DNA of 64,000 nt from Betaproteobacteria bacterium RIFCSPLOWO2_12_FULL_68_20 (GTDB lineage: Bacteria > Pseudomonadota > Gammaproteobacteria > Burkholderiales > SG8-39): assembly GCA_001770655.1 (NCBI GenBank), contig MERQ01000025.1, forward strand, positions 5,753 through 69,752, given 5' to 3'. The notes under the pieces were generated by a model. That model was not told the DNA's origin, did no database searches, and worked only from the letters and a program-made list of their open reading frames with translations. The translations under genes were made by a program, and so were the position numbers. Positions 45,255 to 54,922 of this stretch are shown here, piece by piece. The first letter of the stretch is position 1. The number at the start of each line of letters is the position of its first letter.

Positions 45255-46346
45255 ATGAAATTCGGCCTCAACTTCTTTCCCTCGTTCCGCCCCGAAGACT
45301 CGACCACGGCGGACTACTACGCGCAGTGCCTGTGGCTCGCCGAGCGGGCCGATCAGCTCGGCTACAGCTCGATCAAGACCGTCGAGCATTCCTTCTTCGA
45401 CTACGGCGGGCACTCGCCCAACCCGTGCGTGTTCCTCTCCGCGATCGCGGCGCGTACGAAACGCATCCGCCTCATCACCGGGGCGGTGATCCCGGCGTTC
45501 CACCACCCGGCGCACCTGGGCGGCGACCTCGCGATGCTCGACAACATGAGCAGCGGCCGCCTCGACGCGGGCTTCGGGCGCGCGTTCCTGCCCAAGGAAT
45601 TCGAGGTGTTCGGCGTGCCGATGGAGGAAAGCCGCGCGCGCTTCGAGGAAGGCATCGCGATCATCCGTCGCCTGTGGACCGAGGACCGGGTGACGCACAA
45701 GGGCCGCTTCTGGACGATCGAGGACGTGCATCTCATGCCGCGCGTGGTGCAGAAGCCGCACCCACCAATCTGGATCGCCGCGATCTCGGGCGAGGAATCG
45801 TTCACCTACGCAGCGCGCAACCGCTTCAACCTGATGATCGTTCCCTACGCCGGCAAGCCGGGCCTCCTGCAGGAGCTGGTCGGGCTTTACCGCAGGGTCT
45901 GCTCCGAGTCCGGCCACCCGCCGGGCGCCGAGCAGGTGCAGGTGGCGCAGTTCTGCTACGTCGCCGAGAAGCGCGACGAGGCGCGCGCCGGGTTCGAGCG
46001 CATCTGCAAACGGTACCTGCAGACTTTCGCCGATGCCTGCACCGCGTGGCAGGGCAGGTCATCCGACCAGTATCCCGGCTACGAAAGGATGGTCGCGAGC
46101 ATCATCGCGACCACGCCGGAGAAGATCGTCGCCAACGGCGGCGCGTTCGTCGGCACGCCGGACGAGGTCGCCGATCAGGTCAAGGCGTGCGCCGAGTCCT
46201 TCGGCGGCTCGATCGAGCCTTCGATGCAGATCAATTTCGGCGGCTCGAGCGACGCCGAGGCGTTCAGGACGCTGGAACTGTTCGCTTCGCGAGTGATGCC
46301 GCGGTTCCGGGAAAATTGGCGCCAGACCTCGGTTCTCGCCGGTTAG
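45255..46346 (+). CDS. Luciferase-like (LLM class) flavin-dependent oxidoreductase
   Basis: 363 aa MKFGLNFFPSFRPEDSTTADYY...SGRLDAGFGRAFLPKEF... Confidence 0.8.
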   Translation: MKFGLNFFPSFRPEDSTTADYYAQCLWLAERADQLGYSSIKTVEHSFFDYGGHSPNPCVFLSAIAARTKRIRLITGAVIPAFHHPAHLGGDLAMLDNMSSGRLDAGFGRAFLPKEFEVFGVPMEESRARFEEGIAIIRRLWTEDRVTHKGRFWTIEDVHLMPRVVQKPHPPIWIAAISGEESFTYAARNRFNLMIVPYAGKPGLLQELVGLYRRVCSESGHPPGAEQVQVAQFCYVAEKRDEARAGFERICKRYLQTFADACTAWQGRSSDQYPGYERMVASIIATTPEKIVANGGAFVGTPDEVADQVKACAESFGGSIEPSMQINFGGSSDAEAFRTLELFASRVMPRFRENWRQTSVLAG

Positions 46347-46353
46347 CCGATCC

Positions 46354-47154
46354 TCACTCTCCCTCGCATGGGCGCGCGGATTTCGCCATGCCGCGCAATT
46401 CCTCCATGACCAGCCCCTTGGCTTCCAGTCGTGCAAGATCCATGAACGCCCGGGCTGTTGCCGACGGCTGCTTGCCCAACGGATAAGCGAAGTACCAGTG
46501 GTTTTCCAGGGGAAAGCCGTCGACGTCCAGACAAATCAGTCGCGAGGCTTCGGGCTCCAGTCCGAGCGTGAAGCGCGACATGATCGACACGCCCAGGCCG
46601 GCCAGGATGGCCTCCTTGATCGTCTCGTCGGTGCTCAGCTCCAGCCTGATCTTCGGGGCAAGCCCGTGCTGCTCGAACAGTTTCGTCGCGAGCAGCCGTG
46701 TCCCGGACCCGGGTTCGCGCATGAGGAAGGGCTCCGCGGCGATGCGCTCGAAGCTGATCTGCCGCGCGTTGGCGAGAGGATGGTCGTCGCGCGCGAAAAC
46801 CACCAGCGGATTTGGCAGGAGCGCCTGGGTTACGACGTCTTCCCTGTCGATCGGCGAGGCGAAGAGGTAAAGATCGTCCTCGTTGTTTGCGAGCCGGTCG
46901 ATGAGCGTTTTGCGGTTGTGAATCTCCAGCGACGCGTCCACTCCCGGATAGCGCTGGATGAAGGCGCCGAGCATGCGCGGGGCGAAGTACTTACCCGTCG
47001 AGCAAACAGCCAGCCGCAGATGCCCGCTCTCCATGGCACGCATGCCGTTGAGCGCTTTTTCAAGCCCCGATAGCGCGCGGAATACGTCGTTGCAGCCGGC
47101 ATAAAGGCGTTGTCCGGCGTCCGTCGGGTAGACACGCTTGCCGACCTGTTCGAA
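46354..47154 (-). pseudogene. 5'-truncated LysR-family (CbbR-like) regulator lacking the HTH domain
   Basis: Homology starts at ...FEQVGKRVYPTDAGQRLYAGCNDVF directly after an in-frame TAG (47155-47157). About 50 N-terminal HTH codons are missing. The effector domain is intact. Confidence 0.7.
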
Positions 47155-47176
47155 CTACACGCAGTAGCCAGCGGCT

Positions 47177-47944
47177 CCGTTCCCCAGGCCGTTCTTCGAC
47201 ACCGTGCCGCTTACTTCCTTAGTGCGAGTGACTGGCTGTTTATGCTATCGTTCTTCTTCGCCTCGCCGGTCGCCATGGAGCTGCTCAAGGTTTGCTTCCG
47301 GCACCGGGCGGCAAGGACGATGGAAACGCCGCAGGGCCTGGTGTTAGGCGCACCTGTCGCCGGCTTCGCGCAGCAGGGCGCAAATCTCGCATCGATCTCG
47401 CAACAATTTGCAGGAGGGAGCAGCATGCTAAGGATACTCATCCCGGTCGACGGCTCCCGTAATTGCCAGTTCGCGGCGAAGCATGTCATCAAGGAATTCA
47501 TGAACAACACGGCGATGGAGATCCACCTGCTGAACGTGCAGCCGCCGTTCAGCAGCTACATCGCGCGCTTTGTCAGCAGGAAGAGCCTCCGCGACTACCA
47601 CCGCGACGCGGCCGAAAAGGCGCTGGGCCCGGTCAAGCAGATGCTCGACGGCTTCAGCATTCCTTACTCGGCGCACGCCGAGGTGGGTGAGAGGGCGAAA
47701 GCCATCACCGATACCGCCCGCCGCTTGCGCTGCGACCACATCGTGATGAGCACCGCGCGCAAGAACTCGCTCACCCGGCTGGTCGAAAACTCGGTCACCA
47801 ACAAGGTGATCGAACTGACTTCGATGCCGGTCGCGATAATCGCGGGCGAGGAAGCGTCGAAGTGGGAGCGCTACGGCATTCCGGCCGGAGTCGGGGTCGG
47901 GGTCGCGCTGGCCCTGTTGCTGGCGGCTGCGAACTGACTGATCG
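47177..47944. repeat. Direct repeat copy 1: P-type ATPase 3' tail (frame-broken) + usp gene
   Basis: Colinear with 53614-54360. Shared strings include CCGTTCC.CAGGCCGTTCTTCG.CACCGTGCCGCT, TTCTTCTTCGCCTCGCCGGTCGCCATGGAGCTGCTCAAG and the whole usp gene. Ends at ACTGATCG. Confidence 0.8.
47425..47937 (+). CDS. Universal stress protein family (copy 1), with hydrophobic C-terminal tail
   Basis: 170 aa MLRILIPVDGSRNCQFAAKHVIKEF...CDHIVMSTARKNSLTRLVENSVTNKVIE. ATG after GGAGGGAGCAGC. Confidence 0.8.
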   Translation: MLRILIPVDGSRNCQFAAKHVIKEFMNNTAMEIHLLNVQPPFSSYIARFVSRKSLRDYHRDAAEKALGPVKQMLDGFSIPYSAHAEVGERAKAITDTARRLRCDHIVMSTARKNSLTRLVENSVTNKVIELTSMPVAIIAGEEASKWERYGIPAGVGVGVALALLLAAAN

Positions 47945-48018
47945 CCAGGTACTTCTGCAAGGCGGGTGTGCCGAGTTGGCTGCGCGCTTAGGCGACGCGG
48001 AAGGCGAGAAGATTACCC

Positions 48019-48762
48019 ATGGAATGGCTGTCGGATCCGCAGGCATGGATTGCACTCGTCACACTCACGGCGCTGGAAATCGTCCTCGGCGTCGACAACA
48101 TCATCTTCATCTCGATCCTCGTCGGCCGGTTGCGGGAAGCGCAGCGGCCGCGCGCGCGCACGCTCGGGCTCGCGTTCGCCATGTTCACGCGCATCGCGCT
48201 GCTGCTCTCGCTCGCGTGGGTGATGACGCTCACCGAGCCGCTGTTCTCCTTGATCGGCAAGGAGATCTCGGGGCGCGATCTGATACTCATCGGGGGCGGC
48301 CTATTCCTGCTGTGGAAGAGCGTTCATGAGATCCACAACGCCCTCGAAGGAGAAGCGGACGAACACGCGGCGGCCGCGGTACGCGCGGGCTTCGCCGCGG
48401 TGATCGCGCAGATCGCGATCATCGACATCGTGTTCTCGCTCGATTCGGTGATCACCGCCGTCGGCATGGTCGAGCAGGTGCCGATCATGGTGCTCGCCAT
48501 CGTCGCGGCCGTCGGCGTCATGATGTTCGCGGCCGGACCGATCGGCGGGTTCGTCGACCGCCACCCCACCGTGAAAATGCTCGCGCTGAGCTTTCTGATC
48601 CTCGTCGGCATGGCGCTGATCGCCGAGGGCTGGGACTACCCGATACCGAAGGGCTACATCTATTTCGCGATGGCGTTCTCGGTCGGCGTCGAGATGCTCA
48701 ACATCCGCGTGCGCGCGCGCCGCCGGGACGCGGTCAGGCTGCGCAAGCACACGCCCGGTTGA
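48019..48762 (+). CDS. TerC-family integral membrane protein
   Basis: 247 aa. LEIVLGVDNIIFISIL and DIVFSLDSVITAVGM, the paired TerC motifs. Confidence 0.85.
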   Translation: MEWLSDPQAWIALVTLTALEIVLGVDNIIFISILVGRLREAQRPRARTLGLAFAMFTRIALLLSLAWVMTLTEPLFSLIGKEISGRDLILIGGGLFLLWKSVHEIHNALEGEADEHAAAAVRAGFAAVIAQIAIIDIVFSLDSVITAVGMVEQVPIMVLAIVAAVGVMMFAAGPIGGFVDRHPTVKMLALSFLILVGMALIAEGWDYPIPKGYIYFAMAFSVGVEMLNIRVRARRRDAVRLRKHTPG

Positions 48763-48783
48763 ACCGGCTCTCGCGCTGCCGTT

Positions 48784-48813
48784 TTGACGCGTGGAGAATC
48801 GCCGTGGTAAAAG
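48784..48813 (+). promoter_or_regulatory. Candidate sigma-70 promoter upstream of the riboswitch
   Basis: TTGACG (48784-48789) - 18 nt - TAAAAG (48808-48813), about 50 nt upstream of the riboswitch P1 stem. Confidence 0.3.
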
Positions 48814-48859
48814 GGCAATGCGCGCGGGGCTGATTTTTGAGGGAATCCCCAAAGCGCAC

Positions 48860-48992
48860 CTCCAAAGGGGAGTAGCCACGGCGGCGCGAGAGCAGCGCCG
48901 CTGCGGCAGGGCCGTCATCACGGGATGCGGGAGAATTTCCGCGTCCCCGGCCTTGCCGGCAACCGCAACGTTGCAAGCGAGACCTTTGCCTG
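48860..48992 (+). promoter_or_regulatory. yybP-ykoY (Mn2+) riboswitch
   Basis: CAAAGGGGAGTAGCC at the 5' side, GCAAGCGAGACCTTTG at the 3' side. P1 CAAAGG/CCTTTG. Internal helices CGGCGGCGC/GCGCCGCTG, CGGCAGGGCCG/CGGCCTTGCCG, GGGATGCGG/CCGCGTCCC give the expected four-way junction. Confidence 0.8.
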
Positions 48993-49103
48993 GACGGCGG
49001 TAGCCCAAATTGGGGCTCGTCCGAGGTAAAGGCCGCTTGCTGGCGGGGGTCACCCGGCGCCCCCAGCATGCGGTCCCCGAAGTCTCATGCGGAGGAGGAA
49101 CGC

Positions 49104-49295
49104 ATGCATCGCCGTACCGGACACCGCGAACGCCGCCGGCTCGGGTCCCCCATCCGGCAGCGCGCTGCCGTCCCACTGCCGGCCGCGTTTCCCGCTGCGG
49201 CTGCGGAACAGTTCCACTCTGGCCGGTTCCTCGGTCGCAAGCGCGCAAGCGTGCAATCGCCCGCGCCTCACAACCAACGACAAATTACCGAATAA
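49104..49295 (+). other. Upstream ORF / leader candidate between riboswitch and CaCA gene
   Basis: 63 codons, Arg-rich. ATG sits in the 3' arm of hairpin CATGCG-GAGGAGGAA-CGCATG (49086-49106) whose loop is a strong SD. Stop lies 6 nt before the SD-less ATG at 49302. Confidence 0.25.
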
Positions 49296-49301
49296 CACGA
49301 T

Positions 49302-50297
49302 ATGGGAGCCCTGGGCACCGCGATCCTCGTCTTTCTCGTCAGCTCCACGTTCGTGATCATGGCCGGCGTCGGGCTCGCCCGCTTCGGCGACGCGCTGGCG
49401 GAAGCGACCGGCTGGGGCAAGCTCTGGGTGGGTACCTTGCTGGTAGGCATCGCGACGTCGTTGCCCGAGCTCACGGTCAACGTGTCGGCGGTTTGGCTGG
49501 AGAACAACCCCAGCCTCGCGCTTGGCAACGTGTTCGGCGCCGACATGATCAACATTTTCGTGCTCGCCAGCGCGGCGCTGGTGTTTGGCGTGCCGAATCT
49601 CTTCGGTAAACATGGCCGCGACACGGAACTGCTGATCCTCAGCAGCCTCGGCTTGGTGATCCTCGCGCTTATCTTCGGCGCGCTCGGTGATTTCAAGGTC
49701 CTCGGCCCGGTCAGCGTCGGCGGCCTACTGATCGGCGCCGCCTACCTGTACGGCATGCGGCTCGTGTACCACGCCGGACGCACGCACATGCACCTGGAAG
49801 ACATCCCCGGCCCTACAGGCAGCGCGCGCAACGCCTGGATCGGCTTCGGCATCTCGGTGCTGGTGGTCATCATTGCCGGGCGCTACCTCGCTTCGAGCGC
49901 CGACGCCATCGCGGAAGCCTCCGGCATCAGCGCGAGCTTCATCGGCGTGCTGCTGGTGTCCATCGTGACGACGCTGCCCGAAGCCTCGGTGACGGTGGCC
50001 GCGTCCCTGCGCCGCTCCTACGGCATCGCCATGGGAAACGTCTACGGCAGCAACGCGTTCAACATCGCCATCATCTCCATCGCCGACCTGTTTCACGCCG
50101 AGGGACCGCTGCTGCGCGAAATGCAAAGCGCGCATTTCGCCGCCGCCGGAGCGGCCTTGATGCTGATGACCATGGGCTACCTCGTGTTCAAGAGCTGCCA
50201 GTCGCGGGCCTTCGCCTCGGTGCGGGTCCTCGCGCCCGCCATCCCCGTCGTGTACGTGGGGGCGCTGTACCTTGTTTACACCCTCGGGCAGGCTTGA
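49302..50297 (+). CDS. CaCA-family cation/Ca2+ exchanger (YrbG-like)
   Basis: 331 aa, about 10 TM segments. Alpha-repeats GNVFGADMINIFVL and GNVYGSNAFNIAIISI. Confidence 0.8.
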   Translation: MGALGTAILVFLVSSTFVIMAGVGLARFGDALAEATGWGKLWVGTLLVGIATSLPELTVNVSAVWLENNPSLALGNVFGADMINIFVLASAALVFGVPNLFGKHGRDTELLILSSLGLVILALIFGALGDFKVLGPVSVGGLLIGAAYLYGMRLVYHAGRTHMHLEDIPGPTGSARNAWIGFGISVLVVIIAGRYLASSADAIAEASGISASFIGVLLVSIVTTLPEASVTVAASLRRSYGIAMGNVYGSNAFNIAIISIADLFHAEGPLLREMQSAHFAAAGAALMLMTMGYLVFKSCQSRAFASVRVLAPAIPVVYVGALYLVYTLGQA

Positions 50298-50361
50298 AGC
50301 GGGTCCGGCGCCGTACGTCGCGCCGATGCTCGTCGAGGGCGCGCGGCGCGGCGTTACCGGC

Positions 50362-53019
50362 TCAATCGAGATAGATCCAGCGCCGCCTCACCATCCACTT
50401 CTCGAATTCGACCGCGAAGAACACGATTGAAGGCGCGAAAGTGCAGAACAGCAGCTCGTCGAGATCGAGCGGTTCGGTCTTGAACACCAGGTTGAGCGCG
50501 GGCACGTAGATCACCGCCAGCTGCAGCAGGTAGGTGGCGAGCACCGCGCCGAGCAGCGGCACGTTGGAGGCGAAACCGATCGCGAACACGGATTCGCGCT
50601 CCGTCCGGATCGCGAGCACGTGATAGAGCTGACACAGCGTCAGGACGGTGAACACCATCGTCTGTCAGCGCGGCGAGCCCGTCCCGTAGGCCCATGCCTG
50701 GACGGCGATGCACAGCGCGCCGATCAGCAGGCCGACCCAGACGATGTGCTGCCACATGCCGTGGGCGAAGACGCTTTCGGAGGGGGAGCGCGGCGGGCGG
50801 CGCATGACGCCGGGCTCCGCGCGCTCGCCGGCAAGCGCGAGCCCCGGCAGCCCGTCGGTCACCAGATTGATCCACAGGATCTGGATCGGCGCCAGCGGAA
50901 GCGGCAGCATGAACAGGGGTGCGCACAGGATCGTCGCGATTTCGCCGGCGTTGCCTCCCATCACGAAGCGGATGAACTTGCGGATGTTGTCGTAGATGCG
51001 CCGGCCCTCGCGCACTGCGGCCACGATGGTGGCGAAGTTGTCGTCAAGCAGCACCATGCTCGAGGCTTCGCGCGCCACGTCGGTGCCGGTTTTCCCCATG
51101 GCGATCCCGATCTCGGCGCGCTTGATGGCGGGCGCGTCGTTCACGCCGTCGCCGGTCATGGCGACGAACTCGCCGCGCGACTGCAGCGCCTCGACGATGG
51201 CGATCTTCTGCGCGGGATCGACGCGCGCGTACACCCGGATGTCGCGTACCTGCGCCGCGAATTCGTCGCGCGCGAGCCGCGCCATCTCCGGGCCGGTGAT
51301 CGAGCGCGCGCCCTCGGCCAAGATGCCCAGCCGCGCCGCGATGGCGCGCGCGGTGGCCGGATGGTCCCCGGTCACCATCACCGGGGTGATCCCCGCGGAC
51401 TTGCACAGCGCAACCGCCTCCGCCGCCTCGGGCCGCGGCGGATCCATCATCCCGGCGAGGCCAAGGAACACGAGCCGCGTCTCGACCTCCTCTGCCGAGA
51501 GCACCGAGGGCGCCGCCGGCCAGCGCCGGAAGGCGAAGGCGATCACGCGCAGCCCGTCCGCCGCCATGCGCTCGGCCTCGGCGAGGATCGGCGCGGCCGC
51601 GACAGGAACCTGCGCGCCGCGCGCCAGCATCTCCCGGCACTGCTCCACCACCCGCTCCGGCGCGCCCTTGGTGAAGGCGATCACGCCTTCGGCGTCCGCG
51701 TGGAAGGTCGTCATGCACTTGCGGTCCGAGTCGAATGGAAGCTCCGCGAGGCGCGGGTGCTCGGCCTCCACCGCCGCCTTGAGCACTCCATGTTCGCCCG
51801 CAGCGAGGAGCAGGGCGACCTCGGTCGGATCGCCGATTTCCCCGCCGTCGTGCGCGATCCGGGCGTCGTTGTTGAGCGCCATGGCGCGCAGCAGCAGCGG
51901 CCGCGCTTCCGCGTCGGCGTGGAGCGCCTCGACGCGCATGCGGTTCTGCGTGAGGGTGCCGGTCTTGTCCGAGCAGATGTACGTGACCGAGCCGAGGGTC
52001 TCGACCGCGGGCAGGCGCCGGATGAGCGCGTTCTTGCGCACCAGCTTGTAGGCCCCGAGCGCGAGCGAGATGGTCACCACGGCGGGCAGCGCTTCGGGGA
52101 TCGCCGCCACCGCGAGGCTCACCGCGGTGAGGAACATGAGCATCAGCGGCTCGCCGCGCAGTACGCCGAACGCGAACACCAGCGCGCAGATCGCGAGCGC
52201 GGCGAGCGCGAGGCTGCGGCCGAAGCGCTTCAGCCGGCGCTGCAGCGGCGTGTGCGCCTCGCCTTCGGCCGAGAGCAGCGCCGCGATCCCGCCGAGCTCG
52301 GTCTGCATGCCGGTGGCGACGACGATGCCGCGCCCGCGGCCGTAGGTCGCGACCGTGCCCTTGTACGCCATGTTCCTGCGGTCGCCGACGGGCAGTCCGG
52401 GATCGGCGAGCGCCGCGACGCCCTTCTCCACCGGCACGGACTCGCCCGTGAGCGCCGCCTCCTCGGCCTTGAGCGCCGCCGCCTCGACGATGCGCAGATC
52501 CGCCGGCACGGCGTCGCCGGCCTCGAGCACCACCAGGTCACCCGGCACCAGCCCGGCCGCCGGAATGACGCAGACCGCGCCGCCGCGCACGACCTTGGCG
52601 CTGGTCGCGGACAGCTGCTTCAGCGCCGCCATCGCGCGCTCGGCGCGGTACTCCTGGACGAAGCCGACGATGCCGTTCAGCACCACGATCGCCAGGATCG
52701 CAATCGCGTCCTGCGGCTCGCCGATCGCGCCCGCGATCACCGCCGCCACGATCAGCACGATGATCATGAAGTCGGTGAACTGGTCGAGGAGCATGCGCCA
52801 GGCGCCGCGGCGCTTCGCTTCGCGGATCTCGTTCGGCCCGTGGCTGGCGAGGCGGGCTGCAGCCTCGGCCGCGGTGAGGCCCTTTTCCAGCGAAGTGCCG
52901 GCGGCGCCGATCACCTCCGCCACCGTCATGCAGTGCCATGCCGGAACGATTTGGCTCGGCTCGGGAGCGGGAACGGGTCTTGCGTTTTTCATAAGGAGGC
53001 TCCGATTGCCTCCGGGCAT
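50362..53019 (-). pseudogene. P2-type cation-transporting P-type ATPase interrupted by one in-frame TGA
   Basis: [32 protein letters not shown]. Track ORFs 50665..53019 and 50362..50658 are in the same frame, separated only by TGA at 50665-50667 (...GTGSPR*QTMVFTVL...). Likely start is 52992 (MKNARPV) or 53019. Confidence 0.7.
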
Positions 53020-53613
53020 TCGTGTGGTTGCAGGCCGCCGGTAAGGAAATCGAAGGCGGAATAGGCCCTCGCCGCCGCCCCGGAACGAGACCTAGGTGAA
53101 CCTCGCGCCCGGTGTGCTTCTCGAGCGCAACCACGATGATCTGGTGTTCCTGCTTGGATCCTGTGCCGCCCAGCTTGAATTTTCCGCCCGCCTTATTTGC
53201 CGCCTCGACGCGTAGTCCCGCGCGGTCTTGTAGGTGAACCTGGCCACCGGATTTGATGCTGTTATTTTCACGTTTCGTGATGGCGGATCGCGTCTGTCAA
53301 CGGCCGATTTTGCCCAAACGCAGGGCTTCTTGACACCATTGACACCGCCAAGCCATTTGCGGTGCCATCCGGCTTGATTTTGAGCGCCATAACTTTATGC
53401 TTTATAGAGGCAAAGCTTGGTTACGTTTGGCGATGGCGTTGACCCCGCCCACCCCATCGAACATGACCGAAAAACGTCAGGCTCCGATCAAGATCGGTGA
53501 TCGTGCTCAGTAGGGGGTATCCGCGTTCACCCAGAGGACGAGTTTGTCCAGCGCCATCGTCGTGACCGGCGATGGGTCCTTGCAGTTGGCTGGTCCTGCT
53601 GGTGGTATACGCG

Positions 53614-54360
53614 CCGTTCCTCAGGCCGTTCTTCGGCACCGTGCCGCTAACGCTGAATGACTGGCTGTTCATGCTGCCGTTCTTCTTCGCCTCGCCGGTC
53701 GCCATGGAGCTGCTCAAGTTCTACTTCCGGAGCCGGGCGGCAAGCACGGAAGCAGCGCAGGCCCCGGTGTCTGGCGCACCCGTCGCCCGCTTTGCGCAGC
53801 AGGGCGCAAGTCTCGCATCGATCTCGCAGCAATTCGCAGGAGGGAACGTCATGCTAAAGGTGCTTGTCCCGATCGACGGCTCCCGTAATTGCCAGTTCGC
53901 GGTGAAGCATGTCATCAAGGAATTCATGAACAACACGGCGATGGAGATCCACTTGCTGAACGTTCAGCCGCCGTTCAGCAGTTACATCGCTCGCTTTGTC
54001 AGCAGGAAGAACCTCCACGACTACCATCGCGATGAGTCCGAAAAGGCGCTGGGACCGATCAAGCAGATGCTCGACGGCTTCAGCATTCCCTATTCGGCGC
54101 ACGCCGCGGTGGGTGACAGGGCGAAAACCATCACCGAGACGGCCCGCCGCTTGCGCTGCGACCATATCGTGATGAGCACCGCACGCAAGAACTCGCTGAC
54201 CCGGCTGGTCGAAAATTCGGTCACCAACAAGGTGCTCGAAATGACATCGGTGCCGGTCGAGGTGATCGCGGGCGACACAGTGTCGAAGCTCGAGCGCTAC
54301 GGCATTCCAGCCGCTCTCGCGGCGGTGCTGGCCGCTTTGCTGGCCGTCGCAGACTGATCG
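53614..54360. repeat. Direct repeat copy 2: P-type ATPase 3' tail (frame intact) + usp gene
   Basis: Encodes ...VVYAPFLRPFFGTVPLTLNDWLFMLPFFFASPVAMELLKFYFRSR, then usp. Colinear with 47177-47944. No ATPase body lies upstream. Confidence 0.8.
53851..54357 (+). CDS. Universal stress protein family (copy 2)
   Basis: 168 aa MLKVLVPIDGSRNCQFAVKHVIKEF..., about 85% identical by eye to copy 1. Confidence 0.8.
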   Translation: MLKVLVPIDGSRNCQFAVKHVIKEFMNNTAMEIHLLNVQPPFSSYIARFVSRKNLHDYHRDESEKALGPIKQMLDGFSIPYSAHAAVGDRAKTITETARRLRCDHIVMSTARKNSLTRLVENSVTNKVLEMTSVPVEVIAGDTVSKLERYGIPAALAAVLAALLAVAD

Positions 54361-54404
54361 ATTTCGGCGGCGGCTCGAGCGACGCCGAAGCGTTCAGGAC
54401 GCTG
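54356..54404 (+). other. 49-nt fragment homologous to the 3' region of the LLM gene (46229-46274)
   Basis: GATCGATTTCGGCGGCGGCTCGAGCGACGCCGAAGCGTTCAGGACGCTG versus GATCAATTTCGGCGGCTCGAGCGACGCCGAGGCGTTCAGGACGCTG (2 substitutions and a CGG insertion). Confidence 0.6.
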
Positions 54405-54412
54405 CTGCGCCT

Positions 54413-54922
54413 TCAGCCGGGAGGCGGCTGGATTCCGGGCGGCGGCGGAGGAGGCGGCGCTGCCCGGCGCGCTGGGCGCGACTGGCTCATGCTGCCGGCG
54501 ACCGGGACCTTGTGCCCCTTCGCGTACATGCACTGCTGGTAGCTGAAGTCGTAGCGCTGCTGCAGTGTGCGCGCGGAGGCGTTGCCTGCGCCCGCGCCCG
54601 CGATCGCGCCGCCCGCCAGTCCGATTCCCGCGCCCGCGGCCGCCGAGCGGCTGTTGCCGCCGATCGCCGCGCCGGCGAGCCCGCCGACGAGCGCGCCGAC
54701 CGCCGCGCTGCCGAAGCCGGACTCCCCGGCAACCTCGCCCGGTGTCTTGCCGTCGACCTGCGCCCTCGCGTACTGCCTGCAGTCCTGCTCATCAAAGCGG
54801 AACTGGTCGAAGCTCTTGCCTTCGCCGGGGAGCACGAGCACCCCCGGCCCGCTCGGCGTCGTGGCGCAGGCCGCCAGCAACATCGCCGTTGCCGGGACGA
54901 GAATCTTCTTCGCGATATTCAT
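54413..54922 (-). CDS. Glycine-zipper lipoprotein
   Basis: Lipobox LLAAC. GSAAVGALVGGLAGAAIGG...GAGIGLAGGAIAGAGAG glycine zipper. Pro-rich C-terminus. Confidence 0.65.
   Translation of the reverse strand: MNIAKKILVPATAMLLAACATTPSGPGVLVLPGEGKSFDQFRFDEQDCRQYARAQVDGKTPGEVAGESGFGSAAVGALVGGLAGAAIGGNSRSAAAGAGIGLAGGAIAGAGAGNASARTLQQRYDFSYQQCMYAKGHKVPVAGSMSQSRPARRAAPPPPPPPGIQPPPG

Follow-up and report, generated by a model that had tools for sequence, protein, structure and literature searches.

In Mycobacterium tuberculosis a universal stress protein (usp) gene lies in a cation-pump neighbourhood (ctpF/Rv1996). Exporters controlled by yybP-ykoY riboswitches include those encoded by mntP and alx in Escherichia coli, by the TerC-family gene ykoY in Bacillus subtilis and by mgtA, for a PII-type ATPase, in Streptococcus pneumoniae (PMC11672702, and in part general knowledge), and a Usp domain is found in KdpD, the sensor of the Kdp P-type ATPase (PMC4686210, PMC8214093). 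Here, a locus is described in which related components stand together: a block in the right-hand part of a 64,000-nucleotide (nt) stretch of DNA from Betaproteobacteria bacterium RIFCSPLOWO2_12_FULL_68_20 (GCA_001770655.1, contig MERQ01000025.1), referred to throughout as the window. Two direct repeats, each composed of the end of a P-type ATPase and a Usp domain, enclose a TerC-family gene, a predicted Mn2+ aptamer of yybP-ykoY type, a cation antiporter and a further ATPase gene. Comparison with relatives makes it probable that the block is a mosaic insertion of about 8 kb, and that the repeats are the 3' ends of two decayed genes in which pump and Usp domain had been fused.

The repeats and the gene they come from

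Self-BLAST of the window aligns 47174-47937 with 53611-54357 as colinear, direct repeats, 86.1% identical over 764 columns with 5 gap openings and spaced 6.4 kb apart. A preliminary description of the locus, made by eye, had judged them colinear at roughly 85-90% nucleotide identity, with ends that differ from these by 3-7 nt, and had put the two Usp proteins at about 85% identity, in agreement with the 131 of 154 residues that are identical across the first 154. Both proteins score above the PF00582 cut-off of 24 bits (65.4 and 61.4 bits). It was also correct that the reading frame of the ATPase tail is preserved in copy 2, where an open reading frame (ORF) of 261 amino acids (aa) begins at 53572, and broken in copy 1, by an 8-nt indel now located at ~47217-47224. 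What has to be revised is the division of each repeat into an ATPase tail and a separate usp gene: the stretch of tail, 45-residue linker and Usp contains no stop codon in either copy, and in relatives it belongs to a single fused gene. The C-termini of both Usp proteins are hydrophobic over ~20 residues (GIPAGVGVGVALALLLAAAN and GIPAALAAVLAALLAVAD; 47890-47937 and 54310-54357); the stretch recurs in full-length fusions and may serve as a membrane anchor.

When the 261-aa ORF of copy 2 was searched against a protein database, 1616 proteins matched; the best share the Cation_ATPase_C plus Usp architecture, and many are fragments starting within the ATPase P-domain or transmembrane region. Gene contexts, and a scan of the species representatives in GTDB, revealed the full gene: in L013, L015, L016, L017, L026 and L028 (L numbers are our handles for the loci fetched) a single ORF of 1124-1165 aa runs from the ATPase N-terminus through the actuator, P/N and C-terminal membrane domains to the linker and Usp, and the fused tail-linker-Usp reading frame is present in more than 20 related genomes, in proteins of ~1100-1160 aa. 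At 20 loci its partner is a full-length LysR gene (~317 aa) on the minus strand, transcribed divergently from the fusion gene on the plus strand. The best NCBIfam matches of the fusion ATPase of L017 are PMR1- and SERCA-type Ca2+ ATPases (TIGR01522, 717.8 against an equivalog cut-off of 798.3; TIGR01116, 701.2 against 703.4), each falling short of the cut-off, and the cut-off of the generic P-type model TIGR01494 is passed both by this protein and by the internal ATPase between the repeats. Several units per genome are common in the clade, as in L013, and L017 and L037 come from one metagenome-assembled genome.

Such a canonical unit, a complete fusion ORF facing a full LysR gene with a riboswitch in its leader, does not occur in the window, which holds only remnants: LysR residues 60-~312, and ATPase sequence from codons ~915 and ~900. 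The regulator remnant (LysR'), an orthologue of the LysR paired with the fusion gene, has no helix-turn-helix (HTH) domain, leader or riboswitch, and its extreme C-terminus has been replaced. In a tblastn search with the full-length LysR of L011, residues 60-310 correspond to window 47154-46402 at 90% identity, so that homology reaches 47154 (residue 60), beyond the ATG at 47043; identity to the LysR proteins of L011, L026 and L028 is 92, 88 and 87%. Because LysR' and tail-Usp1 stand in canonical order and orientation, with only 20 nt between the end of LysR' (47154) and the start of the ATPase tail (47174), one internal deletion of ~3.4 kb accounts for the copy 1 half of the block; it would have taken LysR codons 1-59, the leader with its riboswitch, the promoters and ATPase codons 1-~914. 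The truncated LysR gene, previously regarded as the outer left flank of the block, is in this light the regulator that belongs with copy 1, and it forms part of the insert. A short LysR gene accompanied by a 170-aa Usp in L013 was considered as the same deletion and rejected, the proteins being only 25% and 36% identical to those of the window.

Copy 2 has a TctC fragment, not LysR, as its left neighbour, and its unit would have been cut at ATPase codon ~900 against that fragment, leaving tail-Usp2. Its upstream ATPase sequence is ~24 nt longer than that of copy 1 (from codon ~900 as against ~915), and copy 2 therefore cannot derive from copy 1. A catalogue sequence, P0002, matches copy 2 at 98% identity and reads on upstream into an intact ATPase C-terminus, which suggests that the truncation of copy 2 was recent. 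With 86% nucleotide identity, a synonymous divergence (dS) of 0.20 in both parts (omega 0.39 in the Usp core and 0.65 in tail and linker), L011 and L070 nearer to either copy than one copy is to the other, and flanks that differ on both sides, the pair does not have the marks of a recent segmental duplication. Old, divergent and differing in their breakpoints, the 0.76-kb direct repeats would be two surviving 3' ends rather than the ends of a mobile element.

The ends that survive may be those that could still be expressed. An AGGAGG motif 6-8 nt before the methionine of the Usp domain is kept at the nucleotide level in ~30 fusion genes (e.g. L017:10229; window 47411-47427 and 53837-53853), whilst the residues encoded across it vary (FAGGN, FKGGN, LTGGN, FRGEN, VKGGN and others). 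The glycine codons used are GGA and GGG, which is unusual in that GC-rich genomes usually favour GGC. Conservation of the nucleotides despite varying residues suggests an internal ribosome-binding site that yields free Usp besides the fusion. As the Usp domain has its own AGGAGG-ATG, each remnant should still be a translatable usp gene, and copy 2 may also yield a 261-aa membrane-anchored form. A sigma-70 consensus scan of the ATPase tail found no promoter in either copy.

Insertion site and edges

In relatives the luciferase-like monooxygenase (LLM) gene directly adjoins the lipoprotein-like gene that here lies on the other side of the block; the two are convergent, with only a few nucleotides between their stop codons. 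Self matches excluded, 79 loci at 78-85% identity were obtained when metagenomes were scanned with the LLM protein. The gene after LLM encodes the lipoprotein in 32 of the 79, an aldehyde dehydrogenase (ALDH) in 8 and a peroxiredoxin (Prx) in 1 (41 in all), 13 contigs stop just past LLM, and homologues of island genes stand next to LLM at none of the 79. L087, L107, L128, L144 and L147 keep the wider synteny of the window without the island, in the order benzoate-CoA ligase family, p132, SIR2, SDR, LLM, (ALDH), lipoprotein, p116, Prx, HcrC-like gene; in the window itself a benzoate-CoA-ligase-family gene lies in the left flank, and 3,4-dehydroadipyl-CoA semialdehyde dehydrogenase and 4-hydroxybenzoyl-CoA-reductase-like genes in the right. 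The view that the block splits an otherwise coherent aromatic-CoA gene neighbourhood is upheld by these loci, which also provide the empty site, with LLM abutting the lipoprotein/peroxiredoxin cluster.

The edges of the insertion can be read from the LLM gene. Its sequence is ancestral up to MPRFR, where relatives end VMPRF(R/S)-stop, and the last 10 codons (ENWRQTSVLAG) are novel in the window. On the right, 54356-54404 matches 46229-46274, so the LLM fragment reported at that edge is real: this copy comprises LLM codons 326-340 and, after a net loss of ~23 nt, the sequence TTCAG overlapping the lipoprotein stop codon, its ancestral position. Since the right junction keeps the ancestral LLM end and the left LLM carries a novel extension, the insert spans ~46314-54355 (~8.0 kb), bordered by a direct ~85-nt duplication of the LLM 3' end; with LysR' inside it, these limits replace the 47177-54360 proposed earlier.

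Three joins can be read in the block: LysR codon 60 with ATPase codon ~915, the TctC fragment with ATPase codon ~900, and, at the right end of the insert, the usp2 stop codon with LLM codon 326, at no more than 4 nt of microhomology. The idea that the block was assembled by successive illegitimate recombination fits these several illegitimate joins. The ~85-nt duplication could have arisen from a staggered break that was filled in, by template switching, or when a circle carrying a 3' segment of LLM integrated by a single crossover.

Known classes of mobile element describe the block poorly. Composite transposons and insertion sequence (IS) elements are recognised by flanking transposase-encoding IS copies, terminal inverted repeats and a target duplication of 2-14 bp; here the duplication is ~85 nt, and all ORFs of the block are LysR', Usp, TerC, CaCA, ATPase or TctC fragment. 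Integrase islands are recognised by a site-specific recombinase gene together with att repeats, for which the usual place is a tRNA or the 3' end of a gene; 46314-54355 contains no integrase-like ORF, although a target-gene 3' end is duplicated. Without transposase or integrase genes the block is therefore neither a transposon nor an integrase island. A plasmid origin was likewise rejected, as blastn of the 8-kb block against PLSDB found no related plasmid and only generic ATPase similarity at ≤29% coverage. The block is best read as a passive mosaic islet made by illegitimate recombination.

The arrangement is shared between samples. The exact Usp1 protein is present on 23 contigs, and 10 of these, from ENA, JGI and NCBI assemblies (the NCBI one being GCA_001770315.1), match the window at 99.3-99.99% across both repeats; the same arrangement in 10 independent metagenome contigs at >99.3% is therefore not an assembly artefact. 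No excised or amplified variant was found among the contigs inspected or BLASTed, all 10 having the single-copy arrangement with both repeats. To the left, two loci depart from sequence that is otherwise >99% identical: L010 left of window 46390 (L010:1-761, an ABC-type binding-protein fragment) and L009 left of window 45256 (L009:1-233, a TctC gene), the initial 66-138 nt past the switch being only 82-83% identical. These switches point to strain-level recombination or mosaicism at the left edge of the island.

Alternative histories

Several observations weigh against a mosaic insertion holding the ends of two separately decayed units. The ~85-nt target duplication is compatible with more than one mechanism, and P0002 comes from a read-catalogue assembly with no contig on record and could be chimeric. 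In a neighbour-joining tree the copies come out as sisters with weak support (92 of 200 bootstraps, 46%). The two breakpoints lie only ~15 codons apart in a gene of ~1150 codons, a coincidence of ~3% if they were independent and uniform; they might instead be close because sequence ahead of usp had to be retained, although the sigma-70 scan found no promoter there. Lastly, the Rfam model RF00080 does not recognise the window aptamer.

The sister pairing, on long branches, would be expected if a complete riboswitch-LysR/ATPase-Usp unit had been duplicated once within the lineage and both copies had then decayed independently. Both copies also have alanine for the canonical valine at the first aligned codon, and clade genomes often carry several units. 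The bootstrap value is below 50%, however, and the nearness of L011 and L070 to each copy runs counter to a shared origin within the lineage, which we regard as rather unlikely. Such a duplication is in any case a variant of the best explanation that leaves the anatomy and the two separate breakpoints unchanged.

The preliminary description saw in the repeats the bounds of a functional cassette, deletable or tandemly amplifiable by homologous recombination, for instance under Mn/Ca stress. Direct repeats of 764 nt, 6.4 kb apart, do offer substrate for this in identical runs of 49, 41, 31, 30 and 23 nt, lengths at or above what RecA needs in E. coli. Set against this, the repeats are 14% divergent, a level at which mismatch-repair barriers strongly depress recombination; dS of 0.20 and the lack of any long homogenised tract speak against recent homogenisation; ten of ten contigs from different samples share the single-copy arrangement with both repeats; and the ATPase and LysR, two of the main cargo functions, are already inactivated. 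A working cassette is accordingly improbable, and what survives of the claim is a RecA-dependent deletion between the repeats, which is possible and should be rare; the longest identical run is 49 nt.

Less probable again is integration by a single Campbell-type crossover of a circle bearing tail-Usp, TerC, CaCA and ATPase into a resident tail-Usp remnant. Direct repeats around foreign cargo are the topology to be expected of it, and the composition of the cargo does differ from that of the repeats. The repeats should then be reciprocally chimeric, whereas copy 2 is 98% identical to P0002 throughout, with its few differences mostly at the 5' junction, differences between the copies are distributed over the length of the repeat without a single switch, and the left edge of copy 2 is an illegitimate join to the TctC fragment. 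That the island is ancestral at the site and was lost in relatives, or is a chimera of metagenome assembly, has only the metagenomic nature of the data in its favour and is very improbable in the face of 41 diverse uninterrupted loci, none of 79 with island genes, an LLM 3' end whose duplication at both edges marks an insertion, and ten independent assemblies in agreement at >99.3%, 86%-identical repeats not being of a kind to collapse in assembly.

Cargo between the repeats

Table 1. Features of the block and its borders, in window coordinates.
Feature	Position	Strand	Basis or remark
Luciferase-like monooxygenase (LLM), left flank	45255..46346	+	Pfam PF00296, E=1.5e-65
Left copy of duplicated target, LLM codons ~326-352	46229..46313	+	Self-BLAST; LLM C-termini compared with relatives
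LysR', regulator remnant, residues ~60-312	46354..47154	-	Pfam LysR_substrate only (no HTH)
Repeat copy 1, 5' part: final membrane-spanning helix plus linker of ATPase-Usp gene, starting at ATPase codon ~915	47174..47424	+	
usp1, 170 aa, Usp domain of former fusion gene	47425..47937	+	Pfam PF00582, E=1e-17; AGGAGG 7 nt before ATG
TerC-family membrane protein	48019..48762	+	Pfam PF03741, E=1.5e-45
Predicted yybP-ykoY-like (Mn2+) aptamer, four-way junction, upstream of CaCA start	48859..48994	+	Own covariance model R1
CaCA (Na+/Ca2+-exchanger family) antiporter	49302..50297	+	Pfam PF01699 (Na_Ca_ex)
Internal P-type ATPase, probably type IIA (PMR1/SERCA-like), no Usp domain	50362..53019	-	In-frame TGA 50665-50667
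TctC (Bug-family) pseudogene fragment, part A	53067..53234	-	73-76% nt identity to TctC next to CaCA, L151/L154
275-nt insert, 53% GC	53235..53509	.	Splits TctC fragment; 5-nt GTAGG duplication at its sides
TctC pseudogene fragment, part B, abuts copy 2 ATPase tail	53510..53589	-	77-84% nt identity to TctC of L151, L153, L154, L068
Repeat copy 2, 5' part: ATPase codons ~900 to end and linker, in frame with usp2	53587..53850	+	Pfam Cation_ATPase_C + Usp
usp2, 168 aa	53851..54357	+	PF00582
Right copy of duplicated target, ancestral LLM 3' end	54356..54415	+	Self-BLAST; LLM C-termini compared with relatives
Lipoprotein-like gene, 169 aa, right flank	54413..54922	-	Directly adjoins LLM in relatives

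The terC gene and the CaCA exchanger described between the repeats are confirmed by Pfam (Table 1). Orthologues of the latter, 82-87% identical, occur in another context (FTHFS, TerC(-), CaCA(+), TctC, TctB, TctA), and the TerC of the window is only 64-66% identical to the TerC beside CaCA in those relatives and opposite in orientation. The internal ATPase, a minus-strand gene, ends in FAVEFEKWMVRRRWIYLD, so that neither tail belongs to it, as had been noticed from the start; it shares ~45% identity with the ATPase portion of the fusions, and its best matches are TIGR01522 and TIGR01116 (644.8 against an equivalog cut-off of 798.3). The premature stop ascribed to it proves to be an in-frame TGA, which splits it into 775 aa and 98 aa in all independent contigs sampled. 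It is most likely a pseudogene, a split protein being possible. An ATG follows two codons past the TGA (TGA CAG ACG ATG, 50659-50667), and gene callers give a 98-aa ORF with the last membrane helices.

The 0.6 kb before copy 2 (53020-53611), formerly described as AT-rich DNA without ORFs, contains the TctC pseudogene fragment split by a 275-nt insert. This insert is unique within the window and all loci fetched, its ends are only weakly inverted-repeat-like, and it may be an element resembling miniature inverted-repeat transposable elements (MITEs). Between the internal ATPase start and TctC, 29 nt (53048-53076) are 93-96% identical to codons ~95-104 of six canonical ATPase-Usp genes; the match may be due to chance or may be a small remainder of the 5' part of unit 2, and is too short to be called a relic.

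Composition is heterogeneous: GC content ranges over 0.57-0.62 for the repeats and spacer, 0.64-0.70 for the flanks and 0.72-0.74 for the internal ATPase, and at third codon positions it is lower in the LysR' and Usp ORFs (0.80-0.81) than in flanking genes (0.89-0.91). Functional survivors probably comprise usp1, usp2, terC and a riboswitch-controlled CaCA for Mn2+/Ca2+ efflux, with both ATP-driven pumps and LysR dead.

The predicted riboswitch

The preliminary description placed a Mn2+ riboswitch between the repeats. RF00080 gives no match in the window at E≤10 in scans of 14 kb, 1.5 kb and 201 nt, and the insensitivity of this model is evident elsewhere: the E. coli mntP positive control (L156:10462-10558) reaches only 41.6 bits, under the gathering threshold of 45 bits, the sister element in L061, though recognised at E=2.3e-6, scores 35.4 bits, and most of the related elements escape it, those of L016, L019, L067 and L048 being missed at E≤0.01. 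A covariance model built from 23 related elements, with the window left out (R1), scores 83.9 bits (E ~1e-18) at the aptamer, its sole match in the window, and also matches L061. Hallmark segments can be picked out there by eye (GGGGAGUAGC, GUCAUCAC and AGCGAGACCUUUGCC), and the RNAalifold consensus of 24 sequences is a four-way junction of 35 pairs, 11 with compensatory changes. The junction consists of P1.1/P1.2/P2/P3.1/P3.2/P4, with L1 (GGGGAGUAG), L3 (GUCAA.AC) and 3' AGCGAGACC, and the window keeps all helices and invariant columns. A reading without a riboswitch, drawn from the Rfam nulls, was overturned by the mntP control, the motif search and R1. The element is thus predicted to be a Mn2+ riboswitch of yybP-ykoY type on the strength of its structure and a family-specific model, not of an Rfam threshold; the assignment stands in those respects and fails in respect of RF00080.

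The motif search located the same element in 23 canonical units (L011-L013, L015-L017, L019, L020, L023, L025-L028, L031, L035, L039, L041, L045, L048, L055, L066, L067 and L070), on the LysR strand ~110 nt upstream of the LysR start (e.g. L017:6947-7056, minus). There its target would seem to be the gene for a transcription factor, and not a transporter gene. The window riboswitch was examined as a displaced copy of such a leader and this was rejected: only the conserved cores match, the flanks do not, and no relic of a LysR N-terminus follows the aptamer. As only the cores match, it is a separate member of the class. In full-text literature searches, no paper came up that connects yybP-ykoY with a LysR gene, and none that describes ATPase-Usp fusions.

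Implications

A conspicuous repeat pair is in this way explained as gene remnants within a mosaic insertion, an ordinary scar of genome rearrangement, and no evidence favours a mobile or amplifiable cassette. Annotation changes accordingly: LysR' and both ATPase tails become pseudogene pieces, the 261-aa and 170-aa Usp ORFs survive, and the internal ATPase is most likely a pseudogene.

More novel than the block itself is the conserved riboswitch-LysR/ATPase-Usp unit that the comparison set brings out, and which is seemingly undescribed. Tentatively, and with somewhat less than even confidence, we read the repeats as fossils of a regulatory unit of this kind, widespread in uncultured Burkholderiales, in which a Mn2+ riboswitch would act on a LysR regulator and the regulator on a PMR1-like ATPase-Usp pump, with Usp produced both fused and free. 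The window would then show such units in decay with their usp ends retained. The insensitivity of the Rfam Mn model to the betaproteobacterial variant bears, moreover, on riboswitch annotation in metagenomes at large.

Comparison with known systems

Among described structures the block most resembles islets formed by illegitimate recombination, in that synteny is interrupted, composition is mixed, genes are truncated and the target is duplicated directly at the edges. It differs from them in having no integrase, transposase, tRNA target or IS element, and in that its conspicuous 0.76-kb repeats are internal to the insert instead of forming its ends; its ~85-nt target duplication is far longer than the target-site duplications of transposons.

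With KdpD, the canonical unit shares a Usp module functionally coupled to a P-type ATPase system (PMC4686210, PMC8214093). In contrast to both KdpD and ctpF/Rv1996, in the relatives the pump protein itself runs on in frame, at its C-terminus, into the Usp domain, which has its own putative internal ribosome-binding site and ATG, and the window keeps the Usp ends only.

The closest likeness in regulation is to the exporter systems of the yybP-ykoY class. RNA architecture is the same, with a four-way junction, the GGGGAGUAG and GUCAA..AC loops and AGCGAGACC, and the genes near the window aptamer are of like kinds (TerC, PMR1/SERCA-like ATPases and cation antiporters), so that the cargo of the block resembles known Mn2+/Ca2+ efflux sets under these riboswitches (PMC11672702). 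Two differences of placement set the locus and its relatives apart: the window aptamer lies 308 nt before CaCA and after TerC, not before TerC, and in the relatives the element precedes the gene for a LysR regulator, not that for a transporter.

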